Virus record (IMG/VR): IMGVR_UViG_3300033076_001172
Location: 1-41,267 of that record
DNA: 41,267 bases
Direction: 5' to 3' (one strand)
Source: a virus
Lineage: Duplodnaviria; Caudoviricetes
Shown piece by piece: positions 6,922-41,267 of this stretch. The notes under the pieces were generated by a model. That model made no database searches. It was given only the letters and a program-made list of their open reading frames with translations, and was not told the origin of the DNA. The position numbers were made by a program, and so were the translations under genes. Numbering within the stretch: the stretch's first letter is position 1; each line of letters opens with the position of its first letter.

Positions 6922-7788
6922 ATGATCGAGAACGCGAAGCGCGCCGGCCGGGCGTCCGGCGCCGCGCTGCTGATGACGCTGCTGTTGGTGAACACTGCTG
7001 CCATCTGGGGGCAGGCTGGTTGGGCGCTGTCGCGCATCTCCGAGAAGATCATCCCGCAGGAGTGGGCGTACGCCGTCGGATTCGGGATCGCGCTCGCGAT
7101 CGGGTTCGCCATGGCGATCGAGGGTGTCGGAGTGTTCCTGGCGCTCAGCGCCGACGAGGCGGACGAGGCTGGCCTTCCCGCCGGCGGGGTGCGGCTCGCG
7201 TCGTACGCGTGGGGTTTCTTCGTGTCGGGTGGGCTGAACCTGTCGCACTGGAGTTTCGGCGCCGCGGGCATCGCGTTCGCCGCCCTGTCGGCGATCTCGC
7301 CGCTGCTATGGGGGGTGCGCGCCCGGATCCGGCGCGGACGTTCGATCGCTCCGTCTCGCCGGTTCTGGCACCCGATCCGCTCGATCGCGCTGATCCGGGC
7401 GATGGCATGGGAGGGTATCGCGACGGAGGAAGAGGGCATCGCCCACCTGAACAGCCGGACCCCCGCCCCCGCCGAGCCGATCGTTGTCGAAGCGGAGATC
7501 GAGCCGGAGGCTGTCGAGCTCGCCCCGGAGATCGAGCCTCCCGCGCCTCGCGTCGAGCGCGCTCCCCGCAAGTCCGGCCAGCAGGGCGCCGGGAATGTGG
7601 CCGCCAGCGAGTTGCTGGCCGGAGCGACGACGGCGGAGGCCAGCGAGCGCTCCGGGCTGAGCATTCAGAATGTGCGCAAGTACGCGAAAGCCATCCAGAT
7701 GTTGCGTGTTGACCCGAACGCTCCGATCGCGCTCAGCCCCGGCGTGGCTGCCATGCTGCGCGACGAGATCCGCCGGTCCGCCGTCTGA
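6922..7788 (+). CDS. Membrane protein, DUF2637/SpdA-SpdB-like, with a C-terminal HTH-like segment
   Basis: About 4 TM helices, LNLSH and RRFWHPIRS motifs, a Pro/Glu linker and AEASERSGLSIQNVRKY. Confidence 0.6.
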   Translation: MIENAKRAGRASGAALLMTLLLVNTAAIWGQAGWALSRISEKIIPQEWAYAVGFGIALAIGFAMAIEGVGVFLALSADEADEAGLPAGGVRLASYAWGFFVSGGLNLSHWSFGAAGIAFAALSAISPLLWGVRARIRRGRSIAPSRRFWHPIRSIALIRAMAWEGIATEEEGIAHLNSRTPAPAEPIVVEAEIEPEAVELAPEIEPPAPRVERAPRKSGQQGAGNVAASELLAGATTAEASERSGLSIQNVRKYAKAIQMLRVDPNAPIALSPGVAAMLRDEIRRSAV

Positions 7789-10823: not shown

Positions 10824-11324
10824 TCAGAAAAGCGGGATGACGACGACGTCCCGCTGAAACACGGTCCCGTTGCCCGCGCTCAGCACCTTTTTCTGGACGA
10901 CGACGTTGTACGTCGATCCGGCCGTCAGGCCGGTCACGCGCCGGAACATCGAGGCTTGGATGCGCGTCTCTGCGTTCGTCGTCCCTGCCGTGGAACTCTG
11001 CGACGTCTCGATCGAGCTGTCGTCACTGGCCGCAGACACCACGGTTCCGCTTCCGAGAGTACTTCCGGTGGCCACGGACACGGAGACGGCGGCGCGAGTG
11101 CTGTTCGAGTTGCACTGGAAACGCGCACTCCACAGCACCAGGACGTTGCCAGACTCCGGCGCGACGAACGTCGTCCCGCACACCGTGGAACCCGAATCGA
11201 AAGACGTGTTCGTGAACGCCGTCTCGTCGGCCGTCTCGCTGTCGGCGACGTCGTCCGGGGCGACGAGGTTCGTGTTCAGCAGGTCCGCCGTCAGCCTCTG
11301 GCCGGTGGCGAATTCGATAGCCAT
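10824..11324 (-). CDS. Minor tail protein
   Basis: FATGQRLTADLLN N-terminus typical of actinophage tail-fibre-associated proteins. Ser/Thr-rich beta protein. Confidence 0.75.
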   Translation of the reverse strand: MAIEFATGQRLTADLLNTNLVAPDDVADSETADETAFTNTSFDSGSTVCGTTFVAPESGNVLVLWSARFQCNSNSTRAAVSVSVATGSTLGSGTVVSAASDDSSIETSQSSTAGTTNAETRIQASMFRRVTGLTAGSTYNVVVQKKVLSAGNGTVFQRDVVVIPLF

Positions 11325-11340: not shown

Positions 11341-14160
11341 TCAGCTTGCGATGTAGAACGGATGGGCGAGCCGGACCGCGGCGCCGGCGTCGTGCGCCTT
11401 GACCACCCCGTTCACCGACCGGACCACCGTACCCGTCTGCGGCGATGACGTGCCGGTCACCGCGGTCAGCGACATCTCCTCCCCGCCGACCACGATCGGA
11501 ATCGGGAAGTCGGCGGGGAGCGCGGCACTGGTGACCCACACGGCGGATCCGGCCGGTGTGACCAGCGAGATCGAAGTGGCCGTGGTGGTGATCCCGGACC
11601 CGATCGTGTGGCCGGTGGCGTCCAGCCGCGGCGTGGGGATGTCGTTGTCGAGGATCACCACGGACCCGTACGGGCCACCCGGTGAACAGTTGTATTCGAT
11701 CTCCCACAGGAAGTGGCTGAGTTGCTCACTGTAGCCCTGGACGATCTGCGGGACGTCGTCCGGCGGCATCCATGCCGGCAGGCCGGTCAACGTCGCCGTG
11801 TCGCCGAGATTCAGCCCGGCGACGGCGCCGAACAGATCGTCATCGGCCAGCAGGCGCGCGCGATGCAGCGCCACCACCAGGTCAGGATACCGGTCCTGAT
11901 CCCACGACGATGTCAGCGCGAGCCACCCCGCCACCGAGGGAAGTCGATCGTCCGATGCCAGGTTGAGCGTGGTCTCCGTCGCGTACCGGCCGACACCTGC
12001 GGGCGGATCCGAGATCGACGTCAAGCCCTCGGTCACGATCGCGCGGAACGACGATCCTCCAGTGCGAACGACGGTCACGTCGTTGGTGAACCCGATGTCG
12101 TCATCTGTCGGGGATGGGGGGTCGGCCAGGTCGGACAGCGTGTGCGAGAGCGTCGCGTCGGTGCGCACCTCGAGGTCTGCGCGGGTGCGGTATTCGAGCG
12201 TCATCGCATCGCGAGCCTCCCCGCCGATCCCCCCGTCAGTCTCCCAGCACTCGGCGATCAGGTCGGGCAGCGTCTTCGTCGTCTGATAGCCCATGGGTTC
12301 CGAGTCCGAGTAGCGCCCGGTGATCTCCATCGGCACGCCCTCTTCAGCGGCCAGCCTCGCGAGTCTGGCCGCCGCCGTCTCGTTCCGGTAGGCGTTCGCC
12401 ACGTCCCGGTAGGGCATGGCCGCCACGTCCACAAGGCCGGTAGCGGCGTACACCTGAGAGATGCGCATGTCGTTGAACGCGGCGTCGTTGCCGGACAGGA
12501 ACCATATCTGCCGCGGCTCGACGAACCCGGCGCCACCCGTGATCGTGTTCGGCCCGACCGTTCCGCCGAACGTGCCGATCGTGTCCCATCGCTGGGTGTA
12601 CTTCAGGTCGGCGCCGACCTCTTCGAGGTTCAGGCTGTAGCCGACCCACGCGCCGTTCGGGTTGACGTTGGTGATGCTGGTGGAGACCGTCGAGACGAGA
12701 GCGTCGGTGATGTCATACCAGTTGATCACCCATGTCGTCGGGCCGAGTCCGATCTCCACGCGCCAGAACGTGAAATAGATGATCGCGAATATTTTCTGGG
12801 TGGCAGGCAACGCTGTCGTCTTGATGTAGAAGATGTAGCTGTACTCCTGCGCAAGATCAAACAATTTCATGTTCGCGATCGCGCGCGAGCTCGAGTTGCT
12901 GAACGCGAGCGACGACGTGGCGCCGGGCGGCGCATCTCCGTCGCCGAGCCGAGCCTCCCGCAGGCTCATCGCGTAGACGATCGCGCGAGGGTCGGTCCCG
13001 CCGGCTAGGTTCGCGCCGCGCACCGCGTCGCTGTCGTCCTCCAGCGGCCACCATGCGAACGTCGTCGTGAGCGCCTTGAAGTTGCGCGTCATCGGCGAGT
13101 CGAGAGGCTTCACGCCCTGACTCAGGCGTTGCAGCATCCCCGCGGCCCCGGCCGGGATCGTGACGTCGTTGCCCGAAGAGTCCCAGCGTTTCGGCAGCGA
13201 CGACAGCTCGCCCCAGAACCGGACGCGATCCGAGGTCACCCGCGCCCCGTCACCCGAGATCGTCCACGTGTTCGGCGACGCTAGGCCGTCACTCCATGAC
13301 GTCGCACCGAGAGCCTGCGCGCCGGGGTTGAAGTCGGCGACGAGCGTCCCGTTGATCCCGTTGCGCACCTGGAACCGGAACACCTTCCCGCCGTAGGGGA
13401 TGGTGTTGGCGAACGGGTTCGAGCGCGCGACGTTCAGCTCGGCCGTGCCGGAGAAGATCGACGTCGTTCCGGCCTGGACGACCGGCGAGCCGAGCGTCGT
13501 CCACGGGCCGGTGATCGACTCGCCGGTGTAGAACGTGATCGTCCGGTTCCCTCCGCCCGAGTCCACGTCCAGCGTGACGCGCACGCTGATCCGGCCAGAA
13601 GCCGGAGGGGTGATCGGATCGGACGAGACGGCGATGGCGGAGGCGAACGTCCCGAGGGTGGACCAATTCAGGATCAGCTTTCCTTGGCCGGTGAATCGCA
13701 GGATCCAGGAGCGCTGATCTCCGATGGTCAGCCACTTCCCGGCGAGGGTCGAGTCAGTGGTGGCGCGCCACGCGTGCGGCCAGATGTCCGCCCTGATGTC
13801 GATGTCGCCGGTGATGTCGAGCGACGACTTGTCGCTAGTCACCGCCCCGGCGATGGCGTTCGTGTCGTTCCACAGGGTCTTCAGGTGGTTGTCACCCCGG
13901 CCAGCAGACACGCGGATCTGCGTGTTCTTCCCGATCTTCCCGTAGTTGACCGAGGAGGGGAGGCGCGTCGAGAAGAACCCGTCGGCGTTGTCGAAGGTGA
14001 GCGAGGCGCGCTGACTGGCCGCGCGGCCCTGTGCGTTGCCGCGCCCGCGCTGGATGTCGATCCTCTGCCCGTTGCGCACCCGTGAGGAGACGTCCGTCCA
14101 GATGCCGTCGATCAGCACCTCGATGATCGGGTGTTCGTCATCGCCGTACAGTGTCGCCAT
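11341..14160 (-). CDS. Large minor tail/baseplate protein with LamG-like segments
   Basis: WTDVSSRVR...IQRGR, LDITGDIDIRAD and WWPLEDD motifs. Follows the tape measure gene. Confidence 0.85.
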   Translation of the reverse strand: MATLYGDDEHPIIEVLIDGIWTDVSSRVRNGQRIDIQRGRGNAQGRAASQRASLTFDNADGFFSTRLPSSVNYGKIGKNTQIRVSAGRGDNHLKTLWNDTNAIAGAVTSDKSSLDITGDIDIRADIWPHAWRATTDSTLAGKWLTIGDQRSWILRFTGQGKLILNWSTLGTFASAIAVSSDPITPPASGRISVRVTLDVDSGGGNRTITFYTGESITGPWTTLGSPVVQAGTTSIFSGTAELNVARSNPFANTIPYGGKVFRFQVRNGINGTLVADFNPGAQALGATSWSDGLASPNTWTISGDGARVTSDRVRFWGELSSLPKRWDSSGNDVTIPAGAAGMLQRLSQGVKPLDSPMTRNFKALTTTFAWWPLEDDSDAVRGANLAGGTDPRAIVYAMSLREARLGDGDAPPGATSSLAFSNSSSRAIANMKLFDLAQEYSYIFYIKTTALPATQKIFAIIYFTFWRVEIGLGPTTWVINWYDITDALVSTVSTSITNVNPNGAWVGYSLNLEEVGADLKYTQRWDTIGTFGGTVGPNTITGGAGFVEPRQIWFLSGNDAAFNDMRISQVYAATGLVDVAAMPYRDVANAYRNETAAARLARLAAEEGVPMEITGRYSDSEPMGYQTTKTLPDLIAECWETDGGIGGEARDAMTLEYRTRADLEVRTDATLSHTLSDLADPPSPTDDDIGFTNDVTVVRTGGSSFRAIVTEGLTSISDPPAGVGRYATETTLNLASDDRLPSVAGWLALTSSWDQDRYPDLVVALHRARLLADDDLFGAVAGLNLGDTATLTGLPAWMPPDDVPQIVQGYSEQLSHFLWEIEYNCSPGGPYGSVVILDNDIPTPRLDATGHTIGSGITTTATSISLVTPAGSAVWVTSAALPADFPIPIVVGGEEMSLTAVTGTSSPQTGTVVRSVNGVVKAHDAGAAVRLAHPFYIAS

Positions 14161-14174: not shown

Positions 14175-16187
14175 TCAGCCGACTCGGGACACACCGAGCA
14201 CCGTCTGTACGTTACCGCCCTGTTGGCTGATCTCTAGCCGGAGCATGGCCAGCAGTTCGCGGATCAGGCGGTTACTGCCGGACGGGTCGATCTTGAAAGT
14301 CATCGGCGGGGGGGTCGGATGGATGTTGCCGAACCCGTTCGAGGCGATCCGTCGCGAGTCCGGGTTGGAGTGGACCTGCGTCCCGGCCGGCAACTTCACC
14401 AACTCCGGCCCGGCCTCACCCACCATCGTCAGCCCGGACGACATGGAGCCGTTCGCCGCGCCCGTGATGCCGCCGTGCGCGTATCCGCCGATACCCGAGT
14501 CGGTTCCCGCGGCGTTGCCGACAACGCGACGCCGGGTGATGAACGTCTGCGTGAACGTCCCCTCCCACGCAGTCGCCGCGCCTTTCGCCGCCTGGAGTGC
14601 GCGCTCCAGGTCCCTGATCTGCGACTCGCTCAAGCCGGCCTCGCGCCACACTGCCCGCAGTGCGGGGGTGACCTCGCCGAGTCCATCCTTGGCCGCCGCA
14701 GCTGCCGCACCGGACATGCCCGTCGCCGCCTTGCCGAGACGCACCAGCGCCTCGCGCGCCTCGGCCGATTTCGGCCCGTGCTTGTCGAGTGCCTTGTTGT
14801 ACTCGTTCTGCGCCTTGCTGACGTCCTGCTGGGCGCTGATCAGGTTGAACAGGGGGTCGGTCTGCTTCTTCATCTCATCGGCGAGCACCCCCATCCACTC
14901 GACCTGTGCCTGCACCGCCGCGGTGGTGCCGTCCACCTTGTCGGCGAGATCGGCCTGCGCGCTCCCGGTGTCGTCACTGGCCGAGGCGCCGATGCCGAGT
15001 TTCTCGGCCATCTGATCCAGCCACCCGACGGCTCCGCCGATCACCTCGCCCATCGGCCGCAGACCCTCGATCACCGCGGCCGACGCCTCGAGGAAGATCG
15101 AGAGCATGTCGACGGCGACGACGAGCGCCGCGCTCAGGAAATCGATCGCTGCCGCCCACGAGTGCGTGTCGTCGGACGTCCGGGTGATCAGGTCTCCGAG
15201 CGCCTCCCCGACCTCAGCGAACAGGTCGGCGAACGACTGCACGACAGGCCCGGCGTTGCCGAGCGCGTCGTCGATCCCCTCGACGATCGACTCGATGCCG
15301 TCCACGATCCCGTTGAGCAGGGGATCGATCAGCCCTCCGCTCTGGGAGAAGATGGAGCGGATCTCCGGGAGGAGACCTTTCCAGCGCGCGGCCACGGTGT
15401 TGATCGCCCCGACAGCCGAGGGAACGAACGCCGTCGACGCATCTTTCAGATCGTCTTTCAGTATGGTCCCGAGCGCCTTGCCCGCGCCCTTGACCTGCGG
15501 GTGCTGTACTGCGGCAGCGAATCCGCCGGCGATACCGACACCCGCAGCGCCGCCCACGACGGCCGCGCCGAGCACCCCGCCGATCAGCGGAGCTGCGGTG
15601 GCGGCGACGAGCGCGAGCGCGCCCAGCACCTTCGGGTTGTCGGCCGTGTTCGCCAGCATCTCGCCGAACGACTCGACGAACCCCTTAGCTGCCTTCGCCC
15701 CGGCGCGGGCGCCACCCCTCGCCGCGCCGGGGATCAACCCCTCCCCGTCGTCACCACCCTTGGCGCCGGACTTCAGGCCGTCGCTGATCCCCTTGCCCAG
15801 TTTTCCGCCGGCGTCCCGCCCGGCGTTCTCCATCTCGTCGGCGACGTCCTGTCCGAGTGTCGTCGCCCCGGACAGGACGTCCGGGGCCGCCTCGTCGAAT
15901 CCGTCGAGCACGCCCTGACCTAGCCCGCTTCCGGCCTCATGCCCGGCGTCGCCGAGAATGCCGGACACGCCGGATCCGAGGTCGGACGCGCTCCCCAGGA
16001 TCGAGCCGTGACCGGACTCGAATCCCTGGCCGATCCCGTCAGCGAGACCCTTGCCCGCTTTGGTGCCGGATTGCTTGAGATCGCGTTCGATCTCCTCGCC
16101 GGCCTTCTTCGCCGACTGTCGAGCCTTGGCGAATCCCGCGGCGGTATCGTCCTCCGCGCGCACATGGATGACGACCTCATTCTCCAT
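14175..16187 (-). CDS. Tape measure protein
   Basis: Long Ala/Gly-rich helical protein with C-terminal YAHGG...VGEAGPELV. Follows the tail chaperone. Confidence 0.9.
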   Translation of the reverse strand: MENEVVIHVRAEDDTAAGFAKARQSAKKAGEEIERDLKQSGTKAGKGLADGIGQGFESGHGSILGSASDLGSGVSGILGDAGHEAGSGLGQGVLDGFDEAAPDVLSGATTLGQDVADEMENAGRDAGGKLGKGISDGLKSGAKGGDDGEGLIPGAARGGARAGAKAAKGFVESFGEMLANTADNPKVLGALALVAATAAPLIGGVLGAAVVGGAAGVGIAGGFAAAVQHPQVKGAGKALGTILKDDLKDASTAFVPSAVGAINTVAARWKGLLPEIRSIFSQSGGLIDPLLNGIVDGIESIVEGIDDALGNAGPVVQSFADLFAEVGEALGDLITRTSDDTHSWAAAIDFLSAALVVAVDMLSIFLEASAAVIEGLRPMGEVIGGAVGWLDQMAEKLGIGASASDDTGSAQADLADKVDGTTAAVQAQVEWMGVLADEMKKQTDPLFNLISAQQDVSKAQNEYNKALDKHGPKSAEAREALVRLGKAATGMSGAAAAAAKDGLGEVTPALRAVWREAGLSESQIRDLERALQAAKGAATAWEGTFTQTFITRRRVVGNAAGTDSGIGGYAHGGITGAANGSMSSGLTMVGEAGPELVKLPAGTQVHSNPDSRRIASNGFGNIHPTPPPMTFKIDPSGSNRLIRELLAMLRLEISQQGGNVQTVLGVSRVG

Positions 16188-17140: not shown

Positions 17141-17551
17141 CTATCCCCGTCGCCGAGCGTCGGCGATCGTCTGCTGGTGAGTGGCGAAATCGTCCACCCA
17201 ATCGGCGCTGCGGCGCGAGATCGGCGCGCTCAGTCCGTCACGCACCCGGTAGAACGGCTCGCGTTGCAGCGACTTACGGTGCTGCGATCGCCGAAAACAC
17301 GGCTGACCAGCCTCGAAGACGAACGTGTTCGTCCCGTCCTCGTTGCACACCGGGCCGGCGAACCGGTACTTCCCGCGGAGCGCGAGCACCTGAGCGTGCT
17401 CCGGCGTTCCCGGCAGGACGGTGGTTTTCCACCCGTTCGCCCACGCTGCGCACTCCACTTCCTCGCACGTCGCCGGCCGGAAGTGCGTCGGGATCGGCGC
17501 GATGATCTGATAGGTGCGCGTCGCGTCAGGAGTCAGCTTCGGCACGATCAT
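17141..17551 (-). CDS. Conserved virion-region hypothetical protein
   Basis: ATCEEVEC...GW and FEAGQPCF motifs, within the tail module. Confidence 0.7.
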   Translation of the reverse strand: MIVPKLTPDATRTYQIIAPIPTHFRPATCEEVECAAWANGWKTTVLPGTPEHAQVLALRGKYRFAGPVCNEDGTNTFVFEAGQPCFRRSQHRKSLQREPFYRVRDGLSAPISRRSADWVDDFATHQQTIADARRRG

Positions 17552-17759
17552 CGCGCTGCACCTCCCGGATCACCTGGATGTCCCCGTCGAGCGCCTTGAT
17601 CACGCCGACTCCGCTCTCGTCGGCGTAGCCCTGTACGTGCACCGTGACCGGCTTGCCGTATTCGATCTCGATGATGAGCTTGCGCACTATGTTCGGATCG
17701 ATGCCGAGAGCGCGCACCGCGTCGAGTAGTGCTGAGTGGTGACCTGCCATCTTCGCCAT
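17526..17759 (-). CDS. Small inserted hypothetical protein
   Basis: Preceded by GGAGGGGCGAA. Confidence 0.7.
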   Translation of the reverse strand: MAKMAGHHSALLDAVRALGIDPNIVRKLIIEIEYGKPVTVHVQGYADESGVGVIKALDGDIQVIREVQRDDRAEADS

Positions 17760-17769
17760 TTCGCCCCTC

Positions 17770-21441: not shown

Positions 21442-21870
21442 TCAGCTCAACCGGAAGATCTTATCCGTGCCACTCGACCACGTGACCGCGGTGGTGCCGG
21501 TGCCCGGCTGAACCGGCAGGCCGGTCCCGGTGTCGAAGTAGGCGATGACGCGCTGCGAGCCTGCGGCGACGTCGCTGCCACCGGTGACGGCGCTCGACTG
21601 GAACAGCAGCAACCCGTGGTTGCTGGCCGAGGCGGTGGTGTCGATCGTGGTGTCGTCGGCATCGAACACGCCGCTGGTGATCGTCTTGTTCGCGAGCGCG
21701 GTACTCGTGCCGTTCAGCGTGCCGCCGGCGCCGGTCACGTCAGCCACCGTCGAGTGCGAGGTGGAGAACGTGTAGCCGCGCACCAGCGCGCACTTGATCA
21801 CGGCGGTATCGAGATCGATCGCGCCGCCGAGCAATCCCTCGCGCGCGGTGTTGTACAGGGCGTTCGCCAT
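21442..21870 (-). CDS. Virion structural protein
   Basis: IDLDTAVIKCALV, GVFDADD and IAYFDT...GLPVQP motifs. Leaderless start 7 nt after TACCAT. Confidence 0.75.
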   Translation of the reverse strand: MANALYNTAREGLLGGAIDLDTAVIKCALVRGYTFSTSHSTVADVTGAGGTLNGTSTALANKTITSGVFDADDTTIDTTASASNHGLLLFQSSAVTGGSDVAAGSQRVIAYFDTGTGLPVQPGTGTTAVTWSSGTDKIFRLS

Positions 21871-22912: not shown

Positions 22913-22930
22913 CCAGGGTGGACGCTCCCA

Positions 22931-23003
22931 TCGTACAGGTTTGCCTGGAACCGCTGGTTTGACCGGATCAGGCAAACCAGCGGTTCCCGGCAAGCCTGTA
23001 CGA
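22931..23003. repeat. Long imperfect inverted repeat (~31-bp arms)
   Basis: TCGTACAGGTTTGCCTGGAACCGCTGGTTTG-ACCGGATCAGG-CAAACCAGCGGTTCCCGGCAAGCCTGTACGA. Confidence 0.85.
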
Positions 23004-23015
23004 GCGACAGCTATC

Positions 23016-23044
23016 TAGCGCGCAGAAATCTGACGTGCTAGAAT
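23016..23044 (+). promoter_or_regulatory. Cassette-family promoter
   Basis: TAGCGC-N17-TAGAAT, with GAGGGGCGAA at 23066-23075. Confidence 0.65.
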
Positions 23045-23076
23045 CGTGTAGACAGTGAAGAACGAGAGGGGCGAAT

Positions 23077-23262
23077 ATGGGCAAAGGGTTGGACTTCCTG
23101 CGGATCATCGTGATCGGGTTTGCGCTCGGCTCCGGCGCGAACCTGGTGGCAGCGAATCCGCCGAGCGCGATGGAGGACTGGGCGCTCTGGACTCTCGGCC
23201 ATGCCGTGATCGTCCTGGCGGTCGTGATGCTCGTCAAGCTGGCACGAGGGGGGCGCAAGTGA
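23077..23262 (+). CDS. Small two-TM membrane protein (counter-oriented cassette)
   Basis: Two hydrophobic helices, preceded by the GAGGGGCGAA element. Confidence 0.75.
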   Translation: MGKGLDFLRIIVIGFALGSGANLVAANPPSAMEDWALWTLGHAVIVLAVVMLVKLARGGRK

Positions 23263-28038: not shown

Positions 28039-28698
28039 TCAGCGCTCGGATTTGGCGATGACCAGTCCGAGGTCGATTTCGCGCCGTTCATCTTCGGTGA
28101 GCTCCGGCGGGGCGACGTTCTTGTTGCGCTCGATCCACTTGTCCAGCAGGACGCGCCCGGACACCCCGAACTGCTCACGGTGCCACGCGCGGTGCGCTTC
28201 AGCGAACTCGTACGGGGTGGTGTTCTCGATGCGCTTCGCCCCCTCGCAGTACGGCGGGACCTTGTCGTACGTCGATCCCGGTTTGGCGATCACGAACCAC
28301 AGCGCCTTCCCGCCCTCGTGGCGCGGCGAGTAGCAGCGCACGACGCCGGACACTGCGGCGCCGTCGGGAGCCACCCCGAAGCGCTGCACCTGGCCGACAC
28401 TCACGCGCTCCTCCCCGTCGAGCGGGACGAACGACTCACGCGCGTACTTGACGCGCTTCGGCTCGCTCTTGCGTAGCGGACCGGACGCGCGCGCAACGTC
28501 GTCCAGGAAGGTGACGACGCGTTCCGGGAAGTCGGTCGGTTCGCTCGGCTTGCCGGCCTGCACCCATGCGTCCGCCTCCTGGCCGCCCAGCGAGAGTGTG
28601 GCCTGGAATGCTCCGGCCCGAATCGCCCAGTCTCCGCGCTCGCTGTGCGTGACGTTCGCACGGAAGGTCTTGCGCCCGGCTCGCTTCGCGTACTCCAC
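28039..28698 (-). CDS. Cassette hypothetical protein
   Basis: GTG start after GAGAGGGGCGAAC, with its own promoter and terminator. Confidence 0.75.
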   Translation of the reverse strand: MEYAKRAGRKTFRANVTHSERGDWAIRAGAFQATLSLGGQEADAWVQAGKPSEPTDFPERVVTFLDDVARASGPLRKSEPKRVKYARESFVPLDGEERVSVGQVQRFGVAPDGAAVSGVVRCYSPRHEGGKALWFVIAKPGSTYDKVPPYCEGAKRIENTTPYEFAEAHRAWHREQFGVSGRVLLDKWIERNKNVAPPELTEDERREIDLGLVIAKSER

Positions 28699-28726
28699 TG
28701 TTCGCCCCTCTCGATCGCGTACCACC

Positions 28727-28804: not shown

Positions 28805-28984
28805 TCAGGGGAGGTCGATCCACACGCCGAGAAAGTCAGAGTAGATCTCGCGCTCGCTGGCTTCCGCCGCCTTGACGACGAGGGCGATAGCGTCCTTGAC
28901 GCCATCCTGGGTCATGTCGAACTGCTCTCCGATCGCGCTCTCGATAGCGGAGATGCCGCTCGGCCTGATGATCTCGCCGTCCAT
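28805..28984 (-). CDS. 59-aa acidic cassette protein (not in the ORF track)
   Basis: MDGEIIRPSGISAIESAIGEQFDMTQDGVKDAIALVVKAAEASEREIYSDFLGVWIDLP, preceded by GAGGGGCGAA. Confidence 0.75.
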   Translation of the reverse strand: MDGEIIRPSGISAIESAIGEQFDMTQDGVKDAIALVVKAAEASEREIYSDFLGVWIDLP

Positions 28985-29023
28985 GTTTCGCCCCTCACTT
29001 CGCTGATCCCTACTGACACACCA

Positions 29024-31424: not shown

Positions 31425-31606
31425 CACCACACCGCCCACGAGTTGAAGGCGAGCGCGAGCGTGATCCCGAGCGCGCTCGCGATCCCGAGCGTGAGCGTCA
31501 AGCGCGCGCGCGCGATCTGCGAGTGTCGCCCGTCCAGCTCGTGCGCGCACATTCCGATGAGCGCGCCGCCGGCGAACGCGAGCAACACCGCCCCCGCCGC
31601 GCTCAT
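31424..31606 (-). CDS. Small two-TM protein
   Basis: Two hydrophobic segments, coupled at both ends. Confidence 0.65.
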   Translation of the reverse strand: MSAAGAVLLAFAGGALIGMCAHELDGRHSQIARARLTLTLGIASALGITLALAFNSWAVW

Positions 31607-31848
31607 GCGAGCGCGTCCAGGACGTACTCGCCCTCCGGGTGCGTGTAGACGCTCACGCGCGCGCGCTCGGTTGCGCGCGCGTCGAGTCCGCGGCGGCGCG
31701 CGAACGTCAGGCGCGCGCGCTGAAGCTCGGACTCGGCGATCGCGAGCGCGCGCGCGCCGTCCAGGTCGAGCGCGATCAGGTAGATGCGATCGGTCTCCAC
31801 TTCGTAGTTGTCGTCTTCGTAGAACCTGAGCCGGTATTGCTTCAGCAT
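31603..31848 (-). CDS. Cassette hypothetical protein
   Basis: GAGGGGCGAA at 31851-31860 and a TACAAT -10 at 31880-31885. Confidence 0.72.
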   Translation of the reverse strand: MLKQYRLRFYEDDNYEVETDRIYLIALDLDGARALAIAESELQRARLTFARRRGLDARATERARVSVYTHPEGEYVLDALA

Positions 31849-31891
31849 GATTCGCCCCTCACTGATTGATCGTTGCCAGATTGTAGCACGA

Positions 31892-34533: not shown

Positions 34534-35261
34534 CGTGCCCCCTCTTTCTTTCCGGTTACCACTCTGCGCCACGGCTCACCGTCGGTGCGCCATTCGTTGC
34601 CGCATACCGCACAGTGTGCGACGTCACCATCGATCGACACCTCCGAGTGTTTCCCGACGTTGCACGCGGCGCGAGCTTTCGCCCTGGCTGTCTGCCCCGA
34701 TACTCGCTCGCGGATCGCGCTGAACCACCGATCGTCCATCTTCCCGCCGGCCTCGACGTACTCCCCGAGATCGGTGATCGACGCGTACGGAAACCACGGG
34801 CGAGCCGTGCTCCACAGCATCACCGACACCCATCCCGATCCGTCGTGAACGGCGTACGCCGCAGCATCATCCTTCCGAAGCACGATCGCATACCGCCATT
34901 TAAGGGCCCCAGGGGCGCCGTGGGACGCATGGGGAGCGTTCCCCCTACTCCTCTGTACCCTCACGCTCCACGACGCGGCACGGGCGCTCTCAGCCTGTTT
35001 TGCGACAGCCGACGGCATGCCCGCCCCGTCCCACGGATCCCGCGACGTCACGCGGGGCGCCGGATAACCGGCCTCAGTGGCTCGCTGCGTGACGATCGGC
35101 GTGCACCCGTCCTCTCGGTGCACGATCGCGTCCCCGAGCCTCACGCGGCCACACAGGCACCTCCGCGGCCCCTCCCCGGCACCGGCCAGCACGGGCACTG
35201 CGGACTCGGCCTCCTCGATCTCGGCCAGGCCGTACGCCGGGATCCCCTCCGGCTCACTCAC
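34530..35261 (-). CDS. Hypothetical protein with Cys/His clusters
   Basis: Coupled overlaps, with CLCG...H...C and HCAVCG motifs. Confidence 0.7.
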   Translation of the reverse strand: MSEPEGIPAYGLAEIEEAESAVPVLAGAGEGPRRCLCGRVRLGDAIVHREDGCTPIVTQRATEAGYPAPRVTSRDPWDGAGMPSAVAKQAESARAASWSVRVQRSRGNAPHASHGAPGALKWRYAIVLRKDDAAAYAVHDGSGWVSVMLWSTARPWFPYASITDLGEYVEAGGKMDDRWFSAIRERVSGQTARAKARAACNVGKHSEVSIDGDVAHCAVCGNEWRTDGEPWRRVVTGKKEGAR

Positions 35262-35743
35262 GCCCGCTCCATCGCGAGGATCGCCTCGAGGTCCGCGGGT
35301 ACGGCCGGACGCGCCTTGATCAGCACTCCGGGGATCTCGCCCGGACGCACGAAACGCTTGTAGGACGGCCCACCGATCACCAGGCAGTCATCGCGGATCA
35401 GGCCGGACTGCGTGAGCGCGTCCCCCACGTTGCGCGTCAGCTTGTCCCAGTCACCCTGTGACGCCGGCCCCGGAGGCTGGATCGGCCAGAGGTCCCCGCG
35501 CCGCACCTCGGAGGCGAGGCGCTCGAAGCGGAAGTAGGTCTCGACGATCACCGCCCCGTCCCACCGGGTCATCGGGTACGCCACGCGCAGCGCCCGGATC
35601 ATGTGCTCTTTCCAGGGCTTGGAGTACTCCCCGTCCTCGGTGAGCGACACTCGGCACCTCCCCGGCCCGACCTTGATGTGCACCGGCCGCAGCGAGCCTT
35701 TCGTGCGTGGCCTGCCGTGAACGTCGATCCGCACCTGCTCCAT
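35258..35743 (-). CDS. rusA: RusA-like Holliday junction resolvase
   Basis: GRPRTKGS and GDWDKLTRNVGDALT...IRDD motifs. Confidence 0.88.
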   Translation of the reverse strand: MEQVRIDVHGRPRTKGSLRPVHIKVGPGRCRVSLTEDGEYSKPWKEHMIRALRVAYPMTRWDGAVIVETYFRFERLASEVRRGDLWPIQPPGPASQGDWDKLTRNVGDALTQSGLIRDDCLVIGGPSYKRFVRPGEIPGVLIKARPAVPADLEAILAMERA

Positions 35744-35793
35744 GGTTTCGCCCCTCGTCATGCAATTCGTCTACGCCAGATTCTAGCACGAAA

Positions 35794-35837: not shown

Positions 35838-36068
35838 TCAGAACGCCGCGGCCTCGTACTCGTGGATCAGCTTCCCGGCCAGCAGGGCGCCGATCCTCGT
35901 CAACCCGTCACGCTCACCGACGACGCCCACCTTGCGGAACTCGGTCATCACGGCGGGCGTGACGACGTGACCGGTCGGGACGTAGCCCTGGCTGTCACTC
36001 CCGGCCAGGGAGAGCGCCTTGATCGCCGTCTCGCTGAGCGCCGCCCGCATCGCCTCGATCTTGTTCAT
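35838..36068 (-). CDS. Cassette hypothetical protein
   Basis: ATG after GAGAGGGGCGAAC. The GLTRIG motif is wHTH-like. Confidence 0.72.
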   Translation of the reverse strand: MNKIEAMRAALSETAIKALSLAGSDSQGYVPTGHVVTPAVMTEFRKVGVVGERDGLTRIGALLAGKLIHEYEAAAF

Positions 36069-36109
36069 CCCGTTCGCCCCTCTCGCCCTGCCGCCTTCTT
36101 CTACGTCAG

Positions 36110-36138
36110 ATTCTACGCTACTGGATTCTTCAACGCAA
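36110..36138 (-). promoter_or_regulatory. Cassette-family promoter
   Basis: TTGCGT-N17-TAGAAT. Confidence 0.75.
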
Positions 36139-36143
36139 CCCAC

Positions 36144-36492
36144 ATCGGCCACGTTCAGGCACATCGGCCACGCCTCCCGGTGTCTAAAGACACACCGGGG
36201 GGTGGCCGATCTCATTTGCCCCTGGTCAAGTGACTAGGTGGCCGATCGTGGCCGATCGTGGCCGATGTACCCTTGACCTGCGAAAACACTAGGTGGCCGA
36301 TCGTGGCCGATCGTGGCCGATGGAGATCAACTATCGGCCATTTTTGGGGTGGCCGATCCCAAGATCATTTCTCCGAAAGTGGCCGATGTACCCCTGACCT
36401 GCGAAAACGCAAAACGGGTGCGTGGCCGATGTACCCCTGACCTGCGAAAACGCAAAGTGGCCGATCGTGGCCGATCCCCCTCGATCGGCCAC
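36144..36492. repeat. Iteron array, putative replication origin
   Basis: 12 direct GTGGCCGAT copies, 4 inverted ATCGGCCA copies and 3 TGACCTGCGAAAAC copies. Non-coding, directly downstream of the primase-polymerase. Confidence 0.8.
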
Positions 36493-36504
36493 GATCGAGC
36501 ACCC

Positions 36505-38685
36505 CTATTCAGCCCCGGCAGCCACGCCGACGCCCGGAATCGAGGTGCGATCCACAGTCCACCGCGCCCCACTGGCCGCCACTACGACGTGCGCCCACGG
36601 GCCACCGTCCTCGGTGACTTTCTGCCACGCCTTGCGCCACGTGGAATTTTCAGCCTTGCCGCGTTTCTCCTCCACCAACCCGCGTACTTCGGACTGAGTG
36701 AGACCCAGCGTCTCCGCCGTGTCCACCAGCGCCTGAACGATCCAGTGCTGCATGTGCGCCCGCGAGTCCACCTCGGCCACGATCCAGCCGTCCACGGATG
36801 CGCGCGCCTTGAACGGGGTCACCCTGGCCACGTCGGCCTCCGCCACGTCCTCGTGCGTCGTCTCGGCGCCGGCGTACGCGGCCAGGAACGCCGCGCTACC
36901 GGGTTCGGCCAGCACGAGCGACGACACCCGCTCCCCGTCCTCGTCGACTCCGACGTCCACCGCCTCGAACGCCAAATCGATCGGCTCGATCTCCTCGATG
37001 TCCTTCTGCTTCTCCACCGACAGCCGCGCGGCGAGCTTCCCCTTGCCGGGAATGATCTTCAACTCAGTGGTCTGCGCGCCGTCCACCGCCGACGAGCCGC
37101 GCGCATCCCCACCGGCGCGCCCGGTGTGATGGACGACGTACACGCACGCTCCGGTGGCTTGCCTGATCGCCGAGACGGCATCGATGAACACACCCATGTC
37201 GGTGGCGTCGTTCTCCTTCAGTCCGACGGTGACGCGCGCTTGAGTGTCGACGATGACGAGCATCCCCCGGTCGCGTTCCCTGGCCGACGCGGCGAGGCGG
37301 CGGCAGGCCTCGACGAGCACCGCCCATTTCTCCGGGCTCCCCGCCTGAACCGGCCGGGGAAGGATGTGGATCCCGTCGGGCATCCGCCCGTGCCTGATGC
37401 TCCACGCCTTGATCCGCTTTCCGACGCCTCCGGCGCCTTCGGCGACGATCATCACGACGTCGGCAGGGTTGACGCGGCGCCCTTGCCACGGTTGCCCGGC
37501 GGCGACGCGCGCGGCCTGATCGAGCACGACGAAGCTCTTCTTGCTGCCGGGCGGTCCGATGATCCAGCTTTCGCTATCGAATTGCAGCAACCCGTGGATC
37601 AGGTAGCGCGGCGGTTTGCGCTCGGTCACCTGCTCCGGCGTCAGCATCTCGGCCAGCAGGGCATCAACGGCATCGGCCGGCGTGGCTTCGATCGCCGCGG
37701 TGAGCTGTTCGGCGGGGGGTGGGATCTCGTGCCAGGGTTCGCGCATCCCGAATTCCAGCCCGCGCCGCGCCTGATCGGCGACGTAGCGCTCCCCGTGCAC
37801 GTCCACCATGCCGTTGTCCCTGGCCGCTTGGAGTAGCTGCTCCAGCGCCCAGTCATAGGTCCAGAACACTCCGACCCCGTGCCCGGCCAGCACCCCGAAT
37901 TCCTGGGAGAGGATGTGCGAGCGTGCGTTGCCCTCCCCGGTGAGCGCGACGAAACGGCGATGCTGCTCACTGAGCAGGGCGAGTGCCGCAGCGCGGGTCT
38001 TGTATCCGCCATCCGGCCCGAAATCGCGATCGTCGAGCTCGGACGGCGAGGCGAACAGGATGGATGTCGATCCGTGCGCCGTGGGCTCGAGAGGCACCTC
38101 CCTCGAGGGGTTCGGTTTCGGGCGCTTGCCGGCCTGCTTGGCCTCCATGCGATCGAGCACGATCGTCGGCACCGGGGGGAGGTTCGTCCAGTCCGGCTCG
38201 CCGTCCACCCATTCCCACATCCCCCCGCGCGGATCGATCGAGGGCGGGGCGAACGCGAACCCGCCCTCCCCGCGCACGTCCACCCCGTCGGCGACCGCCC
38301 CGTCGTTGTCGACGGTGACGGGCCGGGAGGGGTCGGCCCGGTAGTAGTCATGGGCTCCGCCACTTCCGGAGCGCACGCGCCATGTGGGGGGCGGGGAGAG
38401 CTTTTCCCATTCGACGAGGCCCTGCTTCCCGTCGCTGATGTCCTGATCGATCATGACGAGGCCGGACTTCCCGCAGTCGATGCACAGGGCGTTGTCGCGC
38501 CGGGTGCCGTTCGGTCCCCACCAGGAGGCGATGATCGCGGGATCGGTGGTGCTGGCCTCTTTCCAGGAGGCGATCGGGTAGACCTCCTTCTTCCCGTCGC
38601 CGCGGATGCCGATGCGGGTGGGGAACACTGCCACGCCGGCGGCGGCGTATCGCAGTGCTGCGGCCAAGATGTCGTTATCGCTCAC
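36505..38685 (-). CDS. Bifunctional primase-polymerase fused to an AAA_25/RecA-like helicase
   Basis: VFP, LVMIDQD, SGSGGAHDYY and GVDVRGEGG motifs, then GPPGSKKS, VIVDT and VVHHTG...ARGSSA. Confidence 0.92.
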   Translation of the reverse strand: MSDNDILAAALRYAAAGVAVFPTRIGIRGDGKKEVYPIASWKEASTTDPAIIASWWGPNGTRRDNALCIDCGKSGLVMIDQDISDGKQGLVEWEKLSPPPTWRVRSGSGGAHDYYRADPSRPVTVDNDGAVADGVDVRGEGGFAFAPPSIDPRGGMWEWVDGEPDWTNLPPVPTIVLDRMEAKQAGKRPKPNPSREVPLEPTAHGSTSILFASPSELDDRDFGPDGGYKTRAAALALLSEQHRRFVALTGEGNARSHILSQEFGVLAGHGVGVFWTYDWALEQLLQAARDNGMVDVHGERYVADQARRGLEFGMREPWHEIPPPAEQLTAAIEATPADAVDALLAEMLTPEQVTERKPPRYLIHGLLQFDSESWIIGPPGSKKSFVVLDQAARVAAGQPWQGRRVNPADVVMIVAEGAGGVGKRIKAWSIRHGRMPDGIHILPRPVQAGSPEKWAVLVEACRRLAASARERDRGMLVIVDTQARVTVGLKENDATDMGVFIDAVSAIRQATGACVYVVHHTGRAGGDARGSSAVDGAQTTELKIIPGKGKLAARLSVEKQKDIEEIEPIDLAFEAVDVGVDEDGERVSSLVLAEPGSAAFLAAYAGAETTHEDVAEADVARVTPFKARASVDGWIVAEVDSRAHMQHWIVQALVDTAETLGLTQSEVRGLVEEKRGKAENSTWRKAWQKVTEDGGPWAHVVVAASGARWTVDRTSIPGVGVAAGAE

Positions 38686-38730
38686 GTTTTGCTACCCTCG
38701 TCCTAGGTGTAGTGCGGAAGCGTCGTCATG

Positions 38731-38761
38731 GAACCCCCGGTGACCGATCACCGGGGGTTTC
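38731..38761. terminator. Hairpin upstream of primase-polymerase
   Basis: AACCCCCGGTGA-CCGA-TCACCGGGGGTT. Confidence 0.65.
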
Positions 38762-38969
38762 GCACTTTCCATCCCGCGCGCGTGAGGATCTCGGTGATGG
38801 CTGCCACCTCTTCCGGCGGGAAGCACATCCATCCGCGCGACTCCAGCAGGTCAGCCTTGCGGTTCTCGCTGGCCCGCATCCGTCCGGCGGTGGCGGCGGC
38901 GGTACGCTCGCGGGCGAAGTACGCCGAGCGAGCCTCTTCCTGACGCTCTCGGTCAATCGCACTATGCAT
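38748..38969 (-). CDS. Hypothetical protein, first gene of the leftward arm
   Basis: Leaderless ATG 7 nt after TACGGT. Confidence 0.65.
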   Translation of the reverse strand: MHSAIDRERQEEARSAYFARERTAAATAGRMRASENRKADLLESRGWMCFPPEEVAAITEILTRAGWKVRNPR

Positions 38970-38976
38970 GCCGATC

Positions 38977-39017
38977 ACCGTATCACGGTCAACGGTCACC
39001 GACTTCCGTGATACGCT
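38977..39017. promoter_or_regulatory. Divergent back-to-back leaderless promoters
   Basis: Inverted CGTATCACGG-N17-CCGTGATACG. Each half runs into a TACGNT -10 located 6-7 nt before an ATG. Confidence 0.65.
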
Positions 39018-39023
39018 GCTGTC

Positions 39024-39266
39024 ATGACGACGAATGGCCAGCGCCCCCCTGTCGTGATCAAGATGCACGTAGAGGGCTTCGGGGACAGCCGCGACGAAAC
39101 GCTCGTGATTGATCGCTCCGAGTGGGATTCGATGACCCCTGATCGGCGAGTCAAGGTCGCGGAGGACTGCGCGAACGAATTCGCGGCCAACTACGTCTCG
39201 TGGGGGTGGCATATAGACGATCCGCTCGACTACGCCTCAACCGAAGAGACTCCGCACACCCCGTGA
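39024..39266 (+). CDS. Hypothetical acidic protein, first gene of the rightward arm
   Basis: Leaderless ATG 6 nt after TACGCT. Confidence 0.7.
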   Translation: MTTNGQRPPVVIKMHVEGFGDSRDETLVIDRSEWDSMTPDRRVKVAEDCANEFAANYVSWGWHIDDPLDYASTEETPHTP

Positions 39267-39278
39267 TACCGTCGTGAC

Positions 39279-39334
39279 CAAGCACCCCCGCTAGATCGAG
39301 GTTCGCCCCTCCCTCTCTCCGGGGGTGCTTTTCT
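39279..39334 (+). ncRNA. Putative trans-acting small RNA with a loop antisense to the GAGGGGCGAA start-associated element
   Basis: CCGTGA-TACCGT promoter-like element (39261-39272), 11-bp stem AAGCACCCCCG/CGGGGGTGCTT, 29-nt loop containing GGTTCGCCCCTCCCTC and a U-tract. Confidence 0.55.
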
Positions 39335-39347
39335 GTGCGCCAGATTC

Positions 39348-39376
39348 TTGCGCGTTGAGGTTTTGGTTGCTATGGT
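39348..39376 (+). promoter_or_regulatory. Cassette-family promoter, leaderless
   Basis: TTGCGC-N17-TATGGT-N6-ATG. Confidence 0.75.
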
Positions 39377-39382
39377 TTCTGC

Positions 39383-39682
39383 ATGACGACGACAGCGGTC
39401 ACCGAGGTTCCGAAGTTCATCGAGCGCGACGCCCACGAGGGACGGCACTGGCGCCGCGGCGTTCCGAAAGGCTTCCGCACCGACGTCTACACCGCCGGTG
39501 AGCTGGCCGCGATCAAGCCTGAAGGGGTCATCTGGGAGGTCCAGGCGATCGACGGGCGCCCGGCCCTCTTCCGCTCCCGCTACCGGGCCGACGGCGACGG
39601 CAACCTCCACCTCTACGCCGCTGACGGGCACCGGACGATCGTCCACCCGGCGGCGCGCAGGCTCCGCATCCTCACGAAGTGA
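39383..39682 (+). CDS. Hypothetical protein
   Basis: Leaderless start and GC3-rich codons. Confidence 0.75.
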   Translation: MTTTAVTEVPKFIERDAHEGRHWRRGVPKGFRTDVYTAGELAAIKPEGVIWEVQAIDGRPALFRSRYRADGDGNLHLYAADGHRTIVHPAARRLRILTK

Positions 39683-39705
39683 GGCAGCAACGCCGATTGT
39701 GGATC

Positions 39706-39737
39706 GCCTCCCGCGCTCAAGCGCGGGAGGCTTTTCT
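39706..39737 (+). terminator. Intrinsic terminator
   Basis: GCCTCCCGCGC-TCAA-GCGCGGGAGGC-TTTTCT. Confidence 0.85.
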
Positions 39738-39750
39738 GGGCGCTGGATTC

Positions 39751-39779
39751 TTGCGCGTTGAGGTTTTGAATGCTATGAT
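39751..39779 (+). promoter_or_regulatory. Cassette-family promoter
   Basis: TTGCGC-N17-TATGAT, with 23 bp identical to 39343-39365. Confidence 0.8.
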
Positions 39780-39810
39780 GGACAGCAACAGAAAGCGAGG
39801 GGCGAACGTC

Positions 39811-40119
39811 ATGAACAAGGCTCGGAAGCTCACCTTCCCGAACGTCGGCACGATCCAGGGTTCCCGCGTGTGGCGCAACTCGGAGACCGGCGTCGAGATC
39901 GTCAAGGGCAAGAACTTCGCCGAGGTCGGCCTCTACTACGTGTGCGTTCCGGAAGTCGGCCCCGCCGTCCGGCGCGTGGTTTCCGCATTCCGCACGCTCA
40001 GCGAGGCGCGCAAGGGTGCGACCGGACTCGCCGAGGCGATGCGCGACCTGATCGGCAGGGACTACCTTGACGCGATCGACATCGAGGCGCGCGCCTCGAT
40101 GAATCCGGCGTTCGCCTGA
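39811..40119 (+). CDS. Cassette hypothetical protein
   Basis: ATG after GAGGGGCGAAC. The ORF-track start at 39679 would run through a terminator and a promoter. Confidence 0.75.
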   Translation: MNKARKLTFPNVGTIQGSRVWRNSETGVEIVKGKNFAEVGLYYVCVPEVGPAVRRVVSAFRTLSEARKGATGLAEAMRDLIGRDYLDAIDIEARASMNPAFA

Positions 40120-40457
40120 TGCGACAGCAACGCCGACTGTGGATCGCCTCCCGCGCCCGGCCGGAATCGCTCCGGCTCGGGCGCGGGTGGCAGGTCCGCA
40201 TGATGCTCCGCCCGTGGCGCAGCAAGGTTCCCGTCCCGTGGTCTGCGCCGGTCATCGGCCGGCGCGCGGCCAGTGAGACCGAGGTCCTGATCGCGCGCGC
40301 CTCCACGCCGGGTTGGCCGGACGACGTCCTCGAGGGCTTCGTCCTGGAATTCGCCGACGGCCGGGAGTGGACGGCGCCGACGGGCTACACGCTGGTCACG
40401 CAGCGTCTGCGCACCCCGCAGCGTGAGCGTGAATCGAGAGAGAGGGTGTTCCATTGA
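40119..40457 (+). CDS. Hypothetical protein
   Basis: TGATG coupling upstream and TTGA overlap downstream. Confidence 0.65.
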   Translation: MRQQRRLWIASRARPESLRLGRGWQVRMMLRPWRSKVPVPWSAPVIGRRAASETEVLIARASTPGWPDDVLEGFVLEFADGREWTAPTGYTLVTQRLRTPQRERESRERVFH

Positions 40458-40669
40458 AGATCAAGAGGGGCGACTACGAATTCAGCGAGAGGCAGTTGGA
40501 CATCCTCCCGCTGGTGGCGGAAGGGCTGATGAACGCCGAGATCGGTAAGCGCCTGTTCATCAGCACCGCGTGCGTGCGGGACCACATGACGATCCTGATG
40601 AACACGTTCGGGGCGCGCAATCGCACGCATGTCGTCGCGATCGCACTGCGTTCGGGGGTGATCGAGTGA
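40454..40669 (+). CDS. Stand-alone LuxR/GerE-family HTH transcription regulator
   Basis: FSERQLDILPLVAEGLMNAEIGKRLFISTACVRDHM...GARNRTHVVAIALRSGVI. Confidence 0.9.
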   Translation: MKIKRGDYEFSERQLDILPLVAEGLMNAEIGKRLFISTACVRDHMTILMNTFGARNRTHVVAIALRSGVIE

Positions 40670-41214
40670 ACGATCAGAAAGAGGTGAACCTCGCGCTGCG
40701 CGTCGCGATCGAGGCGGTGAAGGCGCACACCGAGTGCGATCCCCTGACGTGCGGCGGATTCGGCCTCGATCGGTGTGCGCTCGGCAGTGCACTCGATGAA
40801 CTCACCAGCTACCAACGCAGCGCCGGGTACATCGTCGCTCCGCACATCTGGGTGCTACGGACGTGGGCTGACGTGCGGCGCGGGGATGTGGTGCGGATGC
40901 CCGGCCAGGAAGCCACCGCCGCCGAGGTGATGGAGCTGACCACCCTGAGCTGGCACGTGAACGACATCCCGCCGGAGGGCATGACGCCGGAGGAGGCCGA
41001 GAGGTTCGCGCGCGACGTGCAGTACCGCCCGAACGAGCACGCCGGCGAATGGACGGCGCGCTCGGTGACGCTTCGCCCGCTGTCCGCCGACGATCCCGCC
41101 GCCCGGCATCGCATCCCGAACGTCAATCCGGCGGCGCCCGTGGAGATCCGTTTGACGCAGGCGGAGGTGGACGCGATCGAATTGCTTGGCGGATGGGCGC
41201 AACGTGTGCAATAA
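40666..41214 (+). CDS. Hypothetical protein
   Basis: GTGA overlap with the LuxR-type gene and a TWADVRRGDVVR motif. Confidence 0.7.
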   Translation: MNDQKEVNLALRVAIEAVKAHTECDPLTCGGFGLDRCALGSALDELTSYQRSAGYIVAPHIWVLRTWADVRRGDVVRMPGQEATAAEVMELTTLSWHVNDIPPEGMTPEEAERFARDVQYRPNEHAGEWTARSVTLRPLSADDPAARHRIPNVNPAAPVEIRLTQAEVDAIELLGGWAQRVQ

Positions 41215-41267
41215 TCTGAGACGCAAGAATCGAACGCACAGAATCGAGGGGCGATGAAGATCGAGCA

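Follow-up and report, generated by a model that had tools for sequence, protein, structure and literature searches.

A candidate phage antisense RNA complementary to a repeated tag at the start sites of its own genes

A hairpin beside the primase operon of a phage genome carries in its loop the exact complement of a short sequence that is repeated in front of the start codons of about a dozen genes of the same genome, which raises the question of whether the hairpin is an antisense RNA for those genes, a site for a protein or an ordinary terminator. The stretch of DNA analysed here (the window) is the whole linear record IMGVR_UViG_3300033076_001172 (Caudoviricetes; 41,267 nt, 96% complete, 67% G+C), which encodes a helicase, an exonuclease, a methylase, HK97-type head genes, a terminase, RusA, a Prim-Pol/AAA primase and a LuxR-type HTH protein. 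We infer an actinobacterial host, since among cultured phages those of Thermobifida, Streptomyces, Mycobacterium and Gordonia match it most closely. The best cultured protein matches are 55% for the terminase (to a Thermobifida phage) and about 30% for the exonuclease, and a blastn search of positions 36000-41267 against cultured phages gave no match. No integrase or repressor family was matched among the 60 ORFs scanned in the window, in line with the first-pass annotation of this DNA, which had seen no evident protein repressor.

The repeated sequence, GAGGGGCGAA, is present in 12 exact copies in the window compared with 0.14 expected, and none of 100 shuffles reached 12 (Table 1). It is an asymmetric motif, repeated at least ten times in the sense orientation a few bases 5' of start codons, and is referred to here as a tag: 11 of the 12 exact copies lie 0-4 nt 5' of an ATG or GTG that opens an ORF. 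The sole exact copy away from starts, at 39302-39311 on the minus strand, falls within the hairpin at 39280-39330. The first-pass annotation had rightly described this as the only exact copy that is not next to a start codon, but overlooked two 9-of-10 copies (at 41246 and 40465); the extents of perfect pairing that it gave (14 nt at 4792, 12 nt at 6909 and 10-11 nt elsewhere) were reproduced. Its description of the targets as cassette genes does not cover all of them: RusA in the window and the helicase in two relatives are tagged as well, as is a tail-region gene in the window, and with such genes among the targets a simple early-gene shut-off fits less neatly. Most of the 52 tagged ORFs that were scanned for families have none, and the named matches are RusA, the helicase, an RNA ligase (in G001) and one weak match of the moron class. 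A long near-perfect inverted repeat with 31-bp arms (22918-23018) was also seen in the structural region, just 5' of the antisense-oriented cassette at 23077.

Table 1. Positions of the tags, the candidate RNA and the neighbouring features in the window.
Feature	Position	Strand	Remark
Tag, 14-nt match to the RNA	4792-4805	+	Before ORF 4808-5041 (77 aa, hydrophobic)
Tag	5942-5951	+	Before ORF 5953-6069 (38 aa)
Tag, 12-nt match to the RNA	6909-6920	+	Before ORF 6922-7788 (288 aa)
Tag	17760-17769	-	Before ORF 17526-17759, directly behind major-tail-like gene
Tag	23066-23075	+	Before cassette ORF 23077-23262
Tag	28701-28710	-	Before cassette ORF 28039-28698
Tag	28987-28996	-	Before cassette ORF 28805-28984
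Tag	31851-31860	-	Before cassette ORF 31603-31848
Tag	35747-35756	-	Before RusA-like resolvase gene 35258-35743
Tag	36073-36082	-	Before conserved 76-aa gene behind primase, 35838-36068
Small basic helical protein, 73 aa, RGWxC motif, leaderless	38748-38969	-	Divergent from the RNA; first in primase operon
Divergent extended -10 promoters, inverted repeat GTATCACGG...CCGTGATAC	38977-39017		From sequence
DUF7167 gene, accessory insertion	39024-39266	+	Stop codon overlaps RNA promoter
Predicted extended -10 promoter CG-TG-a-TACCGT	39262-39272	+	Predicted start 39279-39280
Candidate RNA, about 55 nt	39280-39334	+	Outer stem 39280-39290/39320-39330; U-tract 39329-39334
Recognition tip GAGG-UUCGCC-CCUC	39298-39311	+	39302-39311 is the exact tag complement; identical in 5/5 records
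Tag	39797-39806	+	Before cassette ORF 39811-40119
9-of-10 copy	40465-40473	+	In first codons of LuxR/GerE-type HTH gene 40454-40669; possible extra target
9-of-10 tag	41246-41254	+	Runs into ATG of last, truncated ORF

At the sequence level, the hairpin has the features of a non-coding RNA gene with its own promoter and an intrinsic terminator (box, stem and U-tract, in five of five records), and a stand-alone transcript of about 55 nt, from 39279-39280 to about 39334, is predicted. Both the -10-like TACCGT and the 11-bp stem reported by the first-pass annotation were recovered, the former at 39267-39272 with a TG before it at 39264-39265, the latter followed by TTTTCT at 39329-39334. The 29-nt loop that it described exists as an insert (39291-39319) but is not predicted to stay open: the insert would fold back on itself in two short inner helices, leaving an apical loop of 6 nt, UUCGCC, which GAGG/CCUC closes. 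The predicted fold of the 56-nt RNA has an energy of -28.5 kcal/mol (z of -5.08; none of 200 shuffles folds as well), and the z values of the homologous hairpins range from -3.2 to -5.9. The extended -10 box, 7 nt 5' of the outer stem, is not accompanied by a -35 box, and the U-tract after the stem is only four U long. A search of the whole window with the Rfam models at E values up to 1 gave eight matches, none of the C4, isrK or CI type. The hairpin lies 13 nt 3' of the DUF7167 stop codon and probably also ends the DUF7167 mRNA. A pattern scan of the window found 14 promoter-like sites, 11 of which resemble TTGCGC-N17-TAGATT (eight feed tagged leaders and three a leaderless ATG); the other three share CCGTGATAC, have no -35 box and belong to the leftward small-gene/primase operon, the DUF7167 gene and the RNA.

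Four relatives carry the RNA, two found by the stem-loop pattern (G001 and G002), one by primase alone (G003) and one by the loop (G004). The unit of promoter, stem-loop and U-tract is present in all five tag-rich records that cover the interval, and in all four relatives it adjoins the small gene and the primase; records L004, L005/L315, L293 and L294 carry tags on stretches that miss the RNA interval and stand outside this count. A TGnTAnnnT box lies 5-11 nt 5' of the outer helix in each of the five, and in G001-G004 the promoter-like box is retained with or without a gene inserted upstream (the DUF7167 gene is missing from G001, G002 and G004, and another ORF takes its place in G003). The 14-nt tip is invariant in the five records while stems and lengths vary, the RNA of G004 being about twice as long. 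Three of ten outer-stem pairs are altered on both sides in G003, all of the two-sided changes in this comparison coming from that one sequence, and five of nine in G004, by register. Copies of GAGGGGCG number 14-21 per RNA-bearing genome, compared with 3-6 for a reversed control. When IMG/VR was scanned with the loop and promoter pattern, four places were matched, exactly those in G001-G004. None of the 21 runs listed for the sequence was an RNA run. Contigs from four runs, which represent close relatives only, show five differences from the window and none in 39298-39311; contig joints that skip the DUF7167 gene had 80% likeness and were set aside. A scan with 16 bases of the loop gave 15 matches, of which three were relatives; the other 12, unrelated and with one or two tags each, were dropped as chance. 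The five RNA-bearing records form one clade, so that the comparisons reduce to a single origin and a single loss, with one alternative version that is doubtful. Separately, G001 and G004 have a conserved startless tag copy, GAGGGGCGAGAAATCAACTCCCCT, behind the exonuclease (L001:1480-1506, minus strand; L027:10966-10990), which may be a separate structured element.

The fit between loop and tag extends beyond the ten letters of the window. Among the AT-rich GAGG leaders of the five genomes, 36 of 74 continue with GGCG, the next commonest continuation occurring three times. After GAGGGGCG, the start-associated copies have an A in 45 of 56 cases, then a second A in 38 of 56, and the next position has no preference, so that conservation of the target ends where the loop does; the top start-associated 8-mer is AGGGGCGA. 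The ten bases of the target that are conserved across the five genomes are the complement of the 6-nt loop and of one 4-nt strand of the inner stem, and since that strand is hidden within the stem, pairing that starts at the loop and proceeds by strand exchange is suggested. The tag overlaps the Shine-Dalgarno position and appears to be conserved beyond what pairing with rRNA would explain. Binding of the RNA to tagged starts is predicted to stay favourable after the costs of unfolding: in an RNAup-like calculation of net pairing energy, all 12 tagged starts were within the top 13 of 59 (-10.7 to -20.4 kcal/mol), a ranking that is partly circular, with the 59 starts picked by hand. The remaining start in the top 13 is that of the LuxR-type gene, with its 9-of-10 copy in the first codons. 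A YUNR loop is a feature of loop-initiated plasmid antisense RNAs, and we take the UUCG at the tip of the window RNA to fit this pattern.

The record G005 (85% complete) provides a natural loss. It is nested within the clade on the trees of the primase (100/99) and the exonuclease (96/98) and has neither the hairpin nor the small gene at the syntenic site, the covariance model detecting only plain terminators. It has four copies of GAGGGGCG compared with the 14-21 of the other clade members, and three of its genes, orthologous to the 31848 gene, the post-primase gene and the helicase, no longer have the full tag (start picking for the RusA orthologue was unreliable, and this gene was left uncounted). 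Three or four start-associated tags are retained, one of them a perfect 9-mer before the exonuclease. Relatives that keep the element and lack the loop had been named by the first-pass annotation as evidence against such an RNA; no tag-rich record covering the interval is of this kind, and the lone nested record without the RNA is tag-poor. Several of the remaining tags or variants in G005 are part of self-complementary hairpins, which might mask the ribosome-binding site in cis (L028:1100-1125, 11236-11253, 11523-11540 and 14759-14776).

The complete outgroup records G006-G008 have 2-5 copies of GAGGGGCG, which is about the control level, and use inverted-repeat promoters instead. The TTGCGC-N17-TAGATT element upstream of tags has no evident inverted repeat of the kind that forms the ESAS of cluster K mycobacteriophages; ESAS-like repeats occur in the distant relatives G006-G008, and TAGTTGACA...TGTCAACTA inverted repeats that resemble ESAS lie over short-gene promoters of distant relatives (L298:8290-9830; L307:8400-9510; L311:3530-3580). 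Beside the primase in distant relatives there are also units of an extended -10 box followed by a short hairpin-terminator (L298:2500-2591, L307:2050-2139 and L311:3930-4021, all on the minus strand), which are possible small RNAs. The primase-side promoter-hairpin units of G006-G008 were considered as altered versions of the RNA and rejected, as they have no repeated complementary start tag (there is one 11-nt match, at one G006 start).

A partial record, L122, is the one new relative among at least 240 loci listed by helicase scans of three collections. It has no GAGGGGCGAA-type tags and contains GCGAGCGAG six times compared with 1.0 expected: four copies lie before starts, one is not clearly at a start and one is reversed within a unit beside the primase (L122:2521-2625) that consists of a promoter-like box, a seed with CUCGCUCG and a strong hairpin, and is complementary to the start motif of its own genome. 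Each of the two RNAs is predicted to pair more strongly with the tags of its own genome: the predicted pairing of the L122 RNA is -14.1 on its own tags and -8.7 to -11.5 on the clade tags, and that of the window RNA is -14.6 to -15.8 on the clade tags and -6.8 on the L122 tags. The L122 unit has a different fold, with a 5' part that is not stably folded (z of 0.28), so that it is a hint, not proof, of covariation. Among the relatives, no homologue of the hairpin was found in which the loop had changed together with a matching change in the tag; the comparison of loop and element yields one co-loss (G005) and one non-homologous alternative pair (L122).

From these sequence comparisons, we consider it likely that the hairpin acts in trans as an antisense RNA and blocks the Shine-Dalgarno sites of its targets, a private regulon of accessory genes and RusA. 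A stand-alone RNA of about 55 nt would pair with GAGGGGCGAA on the ribosome-binding sites of about a dozen genes of its own phage. Its loop, UUCGCC, would pair first with GGCGAA in the target, and the GAGG of the target would then displace the RNA's own GAGG from CCUC. This strand exchange would seal the Shine-Dalgarno core against the 30S subunit and shut off translation of the tagged genes together, while leaderless cassette genes would escape the RNA. Because the RNA shares the promoter class of the primase operon, while eight tagged genes have strong consensus promoters, it might build up later and perhaps time the shut-off, in a phage in which no repressor was detected.

The RNA could also work as a guide complex with the 73-aa basic protein, or act via mRNA decay or premature termination in the way that P4 CI is reported to act via termination (PMC4825925). 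The gene for this protein is present in five of five RNA-bearing records and was undetected in five of five examined records without the RNA (no match below an E value of 0.07 in G005-G008 or L122), and it shares the promoter class of the RNA, but the co-loss is a single event that involves neighbouring genes, and the predicted pairing is already favourable without a helper. The protein has 52 homologues and a two-helix model (pLDDT 82), yet no match to a family or structure was found for it in Pfam, PHROG, the Atlas or the PDB; a tblastn search against cultured phages likewise gave no match, and a metagenome scan with it gave no new relative. A DNA-binding autoregulator would account equally well for the ACGGT repeats that lie between the divergent promoters. 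We therefore regard action through the protein or through decay or termination as unlikely, and the protein itself may either work together with the RNA or regulate the two divergent promoters. The repeats, conserved as ACGGT(C/G)A (window 38980-39012; L006:7545-7580; L015:7510-7550), are candidate binding sites for the protein.

A tag that is the site of a phage protein, either a translational repressor bound to mRNA or a stoperator-like DNA-binding protein, with the reversed copy as an operator or minus-strand decoy, seems distinctly improbable. Such a protein would suit the three cluster K phages that retain tags without the loop, the LuxR/GerE HTH protein that the phage encodes and the inverted-repeat, operator-like promoters used by G006-G008. 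However, the promoter-like box and U-tract are on the plus strand in five of five records, so that the likely RNA carries the complement and not the tag, and no minus-strand promoter was found between 39300 and 39400. The model score is 75 bits on the plus strand and 29.6 bits on the minus strand, a difference that is in part by construction, and a DNA operator needs no stem that is kept by two-sided changes.

Within an antisense reading, the GAGG Shine-Dalgarno core is part of the paired stretch, which favours occlusion over activation. The pairing of an sRNA over a GAGG core near the start codon blocks initiation, and here the duplex covers this core 4-12 nt before the start codon. We thus see very little room for an RNA that pairs with the tags but promotes or stabilizes expression, for example by 5'-end protection or tethering, although the tagged replication functions (RusA, the helicase and, in G001, an RNA ligase) would be needed while the primase operon is on. 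It is highly improbable that the hairpin is no more than a terminator and the tag a strong Shine-Dalgarno variant that cassette shuffling has spread, with the match left over from an inverted cassette. In favour of this reading, the hairpin follows the DUF7167 stop codon in the window and another gene in G003, and there are terminator-like hairpins whose arms contain the tag (G003 21769-21798). However, there is no preceding gene in G001, G002 and G004 and yet the promoter-like box is kept, the tip stays invariant while stems and lengths change, and the GGCGAA half of the tag is conserved beyond an rRNA-pairing explanation.

Antisense blocking of the tagged starts has partial precedents. The C4 RNA of P1 and P7 is a small structured phage RNA that controls genes of its own phage by loop pairing. 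The CI RNA of P4 resembles the window candidate in being a small structured RNA, encoded by the phage, that pairs with its own phage genes via exposed loops; it is described as processed from the transcript that it controls, pairing with seqA and seqC nearby and bringing about termination in the lysogen (PMC4825925). In contrast, the window RNA is predicted to have a promoter of its own, its targets (about 12) are dispersed, and there are no signs of lysogeny. With these targets, and with no integrase or repressor family, it departs from the C4/CI/IsrK pattern of processing from, and pairing with, the leader of its own operon in a temperate phage. Trans-encoded bacterial and phage sRNAs are described in a review as using seed pairing over the Shine-Dalgarno region of several targets (PMC12197685), and the predicted accessible seed of the window RNA also covers this region of several targets; unlike the short imperfect sites of those RNAs, the sites here are near-identical, perfect 10-nt tags on dispersed genes of the same phage.

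The closest parallel on the target side is the start-associated sequence (SAS), described in cluster K mycobacteriophages as an asymmetric, over-conserved motif at the ribosome-binding-site position of 10-19 genes, most of them non-structural, and often with a conserved promoter upstream of it (PMC3203893, PMC11373665, PMC12699233), and also in cluster EF Microbacterium phages (PMC7302621). The function of SAS is described as unknown in these papers, and the 2011 paper noted one opposite-orientation copy in four phages and left open an RNA or a protein ligand (Pope et al., PMC3203893). The tag of the window is likewise an asymmetric, over-conserved motif at the ribosome-binding-site position of mostly non-structural genes, but its sequence differs (GAGGGGCGAA compared with GGGATAGGAGCCC) and the phages are unrelated; by inspection, the 13-nt SAS consensus, GGGATAGGAGCCC or GGGAAAGGACCCC, is not the tag of the window.

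In Adephagia and Anaya, the reverse SAS is the apical loop of a long hairpin (L023:38660-38720, which is Adephagia 58,659-58,719; L022:39848-39908 in Anaya). This hairpin, located between genes 92 and 93, where late transcription reportedly begins (PMC11373665), is part of a structured leader of about 270 nt that follows a promoter-like site (TTGGCG/TAGACT), whereas the complement in the window forms part of a predicted stand-alone 55-nt gene with a U-tract. The loop is identical in six of ten aligned cluster K phages, all six labelled Anayavirus, and two of 18 pairs are changed on both sides. In Pixie, Keshu and Yuna (the last also an Anayavirus) there are 17-19 tags and the reverse copy is absent, and the ZoeJ reverse copy is the tag of a leftward gene. 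The variant loop of Ekdilam was rejected as a case of covariation, having one mismatch to the 16 tags of that phage and no matching variant tags. Tags can therefore persist without a perfect antisense loop, and the mechanism for SAS that the first-pass annotation proposed agrees with the complementary loop in six of ten cluster K phages but not with the three that keep their tags without one. No published description of an RNA antisense to a phage start tag was found in the literature searched, from which subscription journals were mostly absent.

A broader possibility, which we put forward tentatively, is that the system works as a barcode-and-guide switch: the 55-nt RNA, possibly with its 73-aa partner, would read a private 10-nt tag, new cassette genes would join the regulon by acquiring the tag, and lineages would exchange the tag/RNA pair for another one (L122) or for protein operators (G006-G008); the reverse SAS of Anayavirus might then be the same device placed in a late leader, which would explain SAS. 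SAS have been described without a mechanism since 2011, and the window phage supplies an unusually clean candidate for their ligand. This is a small RNA gene, separate from others, that has a conserved promoter-like box and terminator and a natural loss, and its RNA/tag design could be rebuilt with two plasmids. A direct test would also be possible in cultured phages, since the single reverse SAS of Adephagia and its relatives sits in a conserved hairpin loop. If the antisense reading is true, a single RNA takes the place of a protein repressor in timing a dispersed regulon in some lytic phages, and the RNA/tag pair would be a compact orthogonal switch for actinobacteria.

Other features of the window and its relatives were recorded alongside the hairpin. 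A tRNA-like gene (3864-3936; Rfam RF00005, 43 bits) lies between the exonuclease and the next ORF of the window. Direct and inverted iteron-like repeats of GTGGCCGATC (36233-36490) lie directly behind the primase gene and are a probable replication origin. The terminase genes of G003 and L005 are interrupted and G004 has a 935-aa helicase (L006:13752-16025; L005:4597-6912; L015:9920-12724), suggesting introns or inteins.
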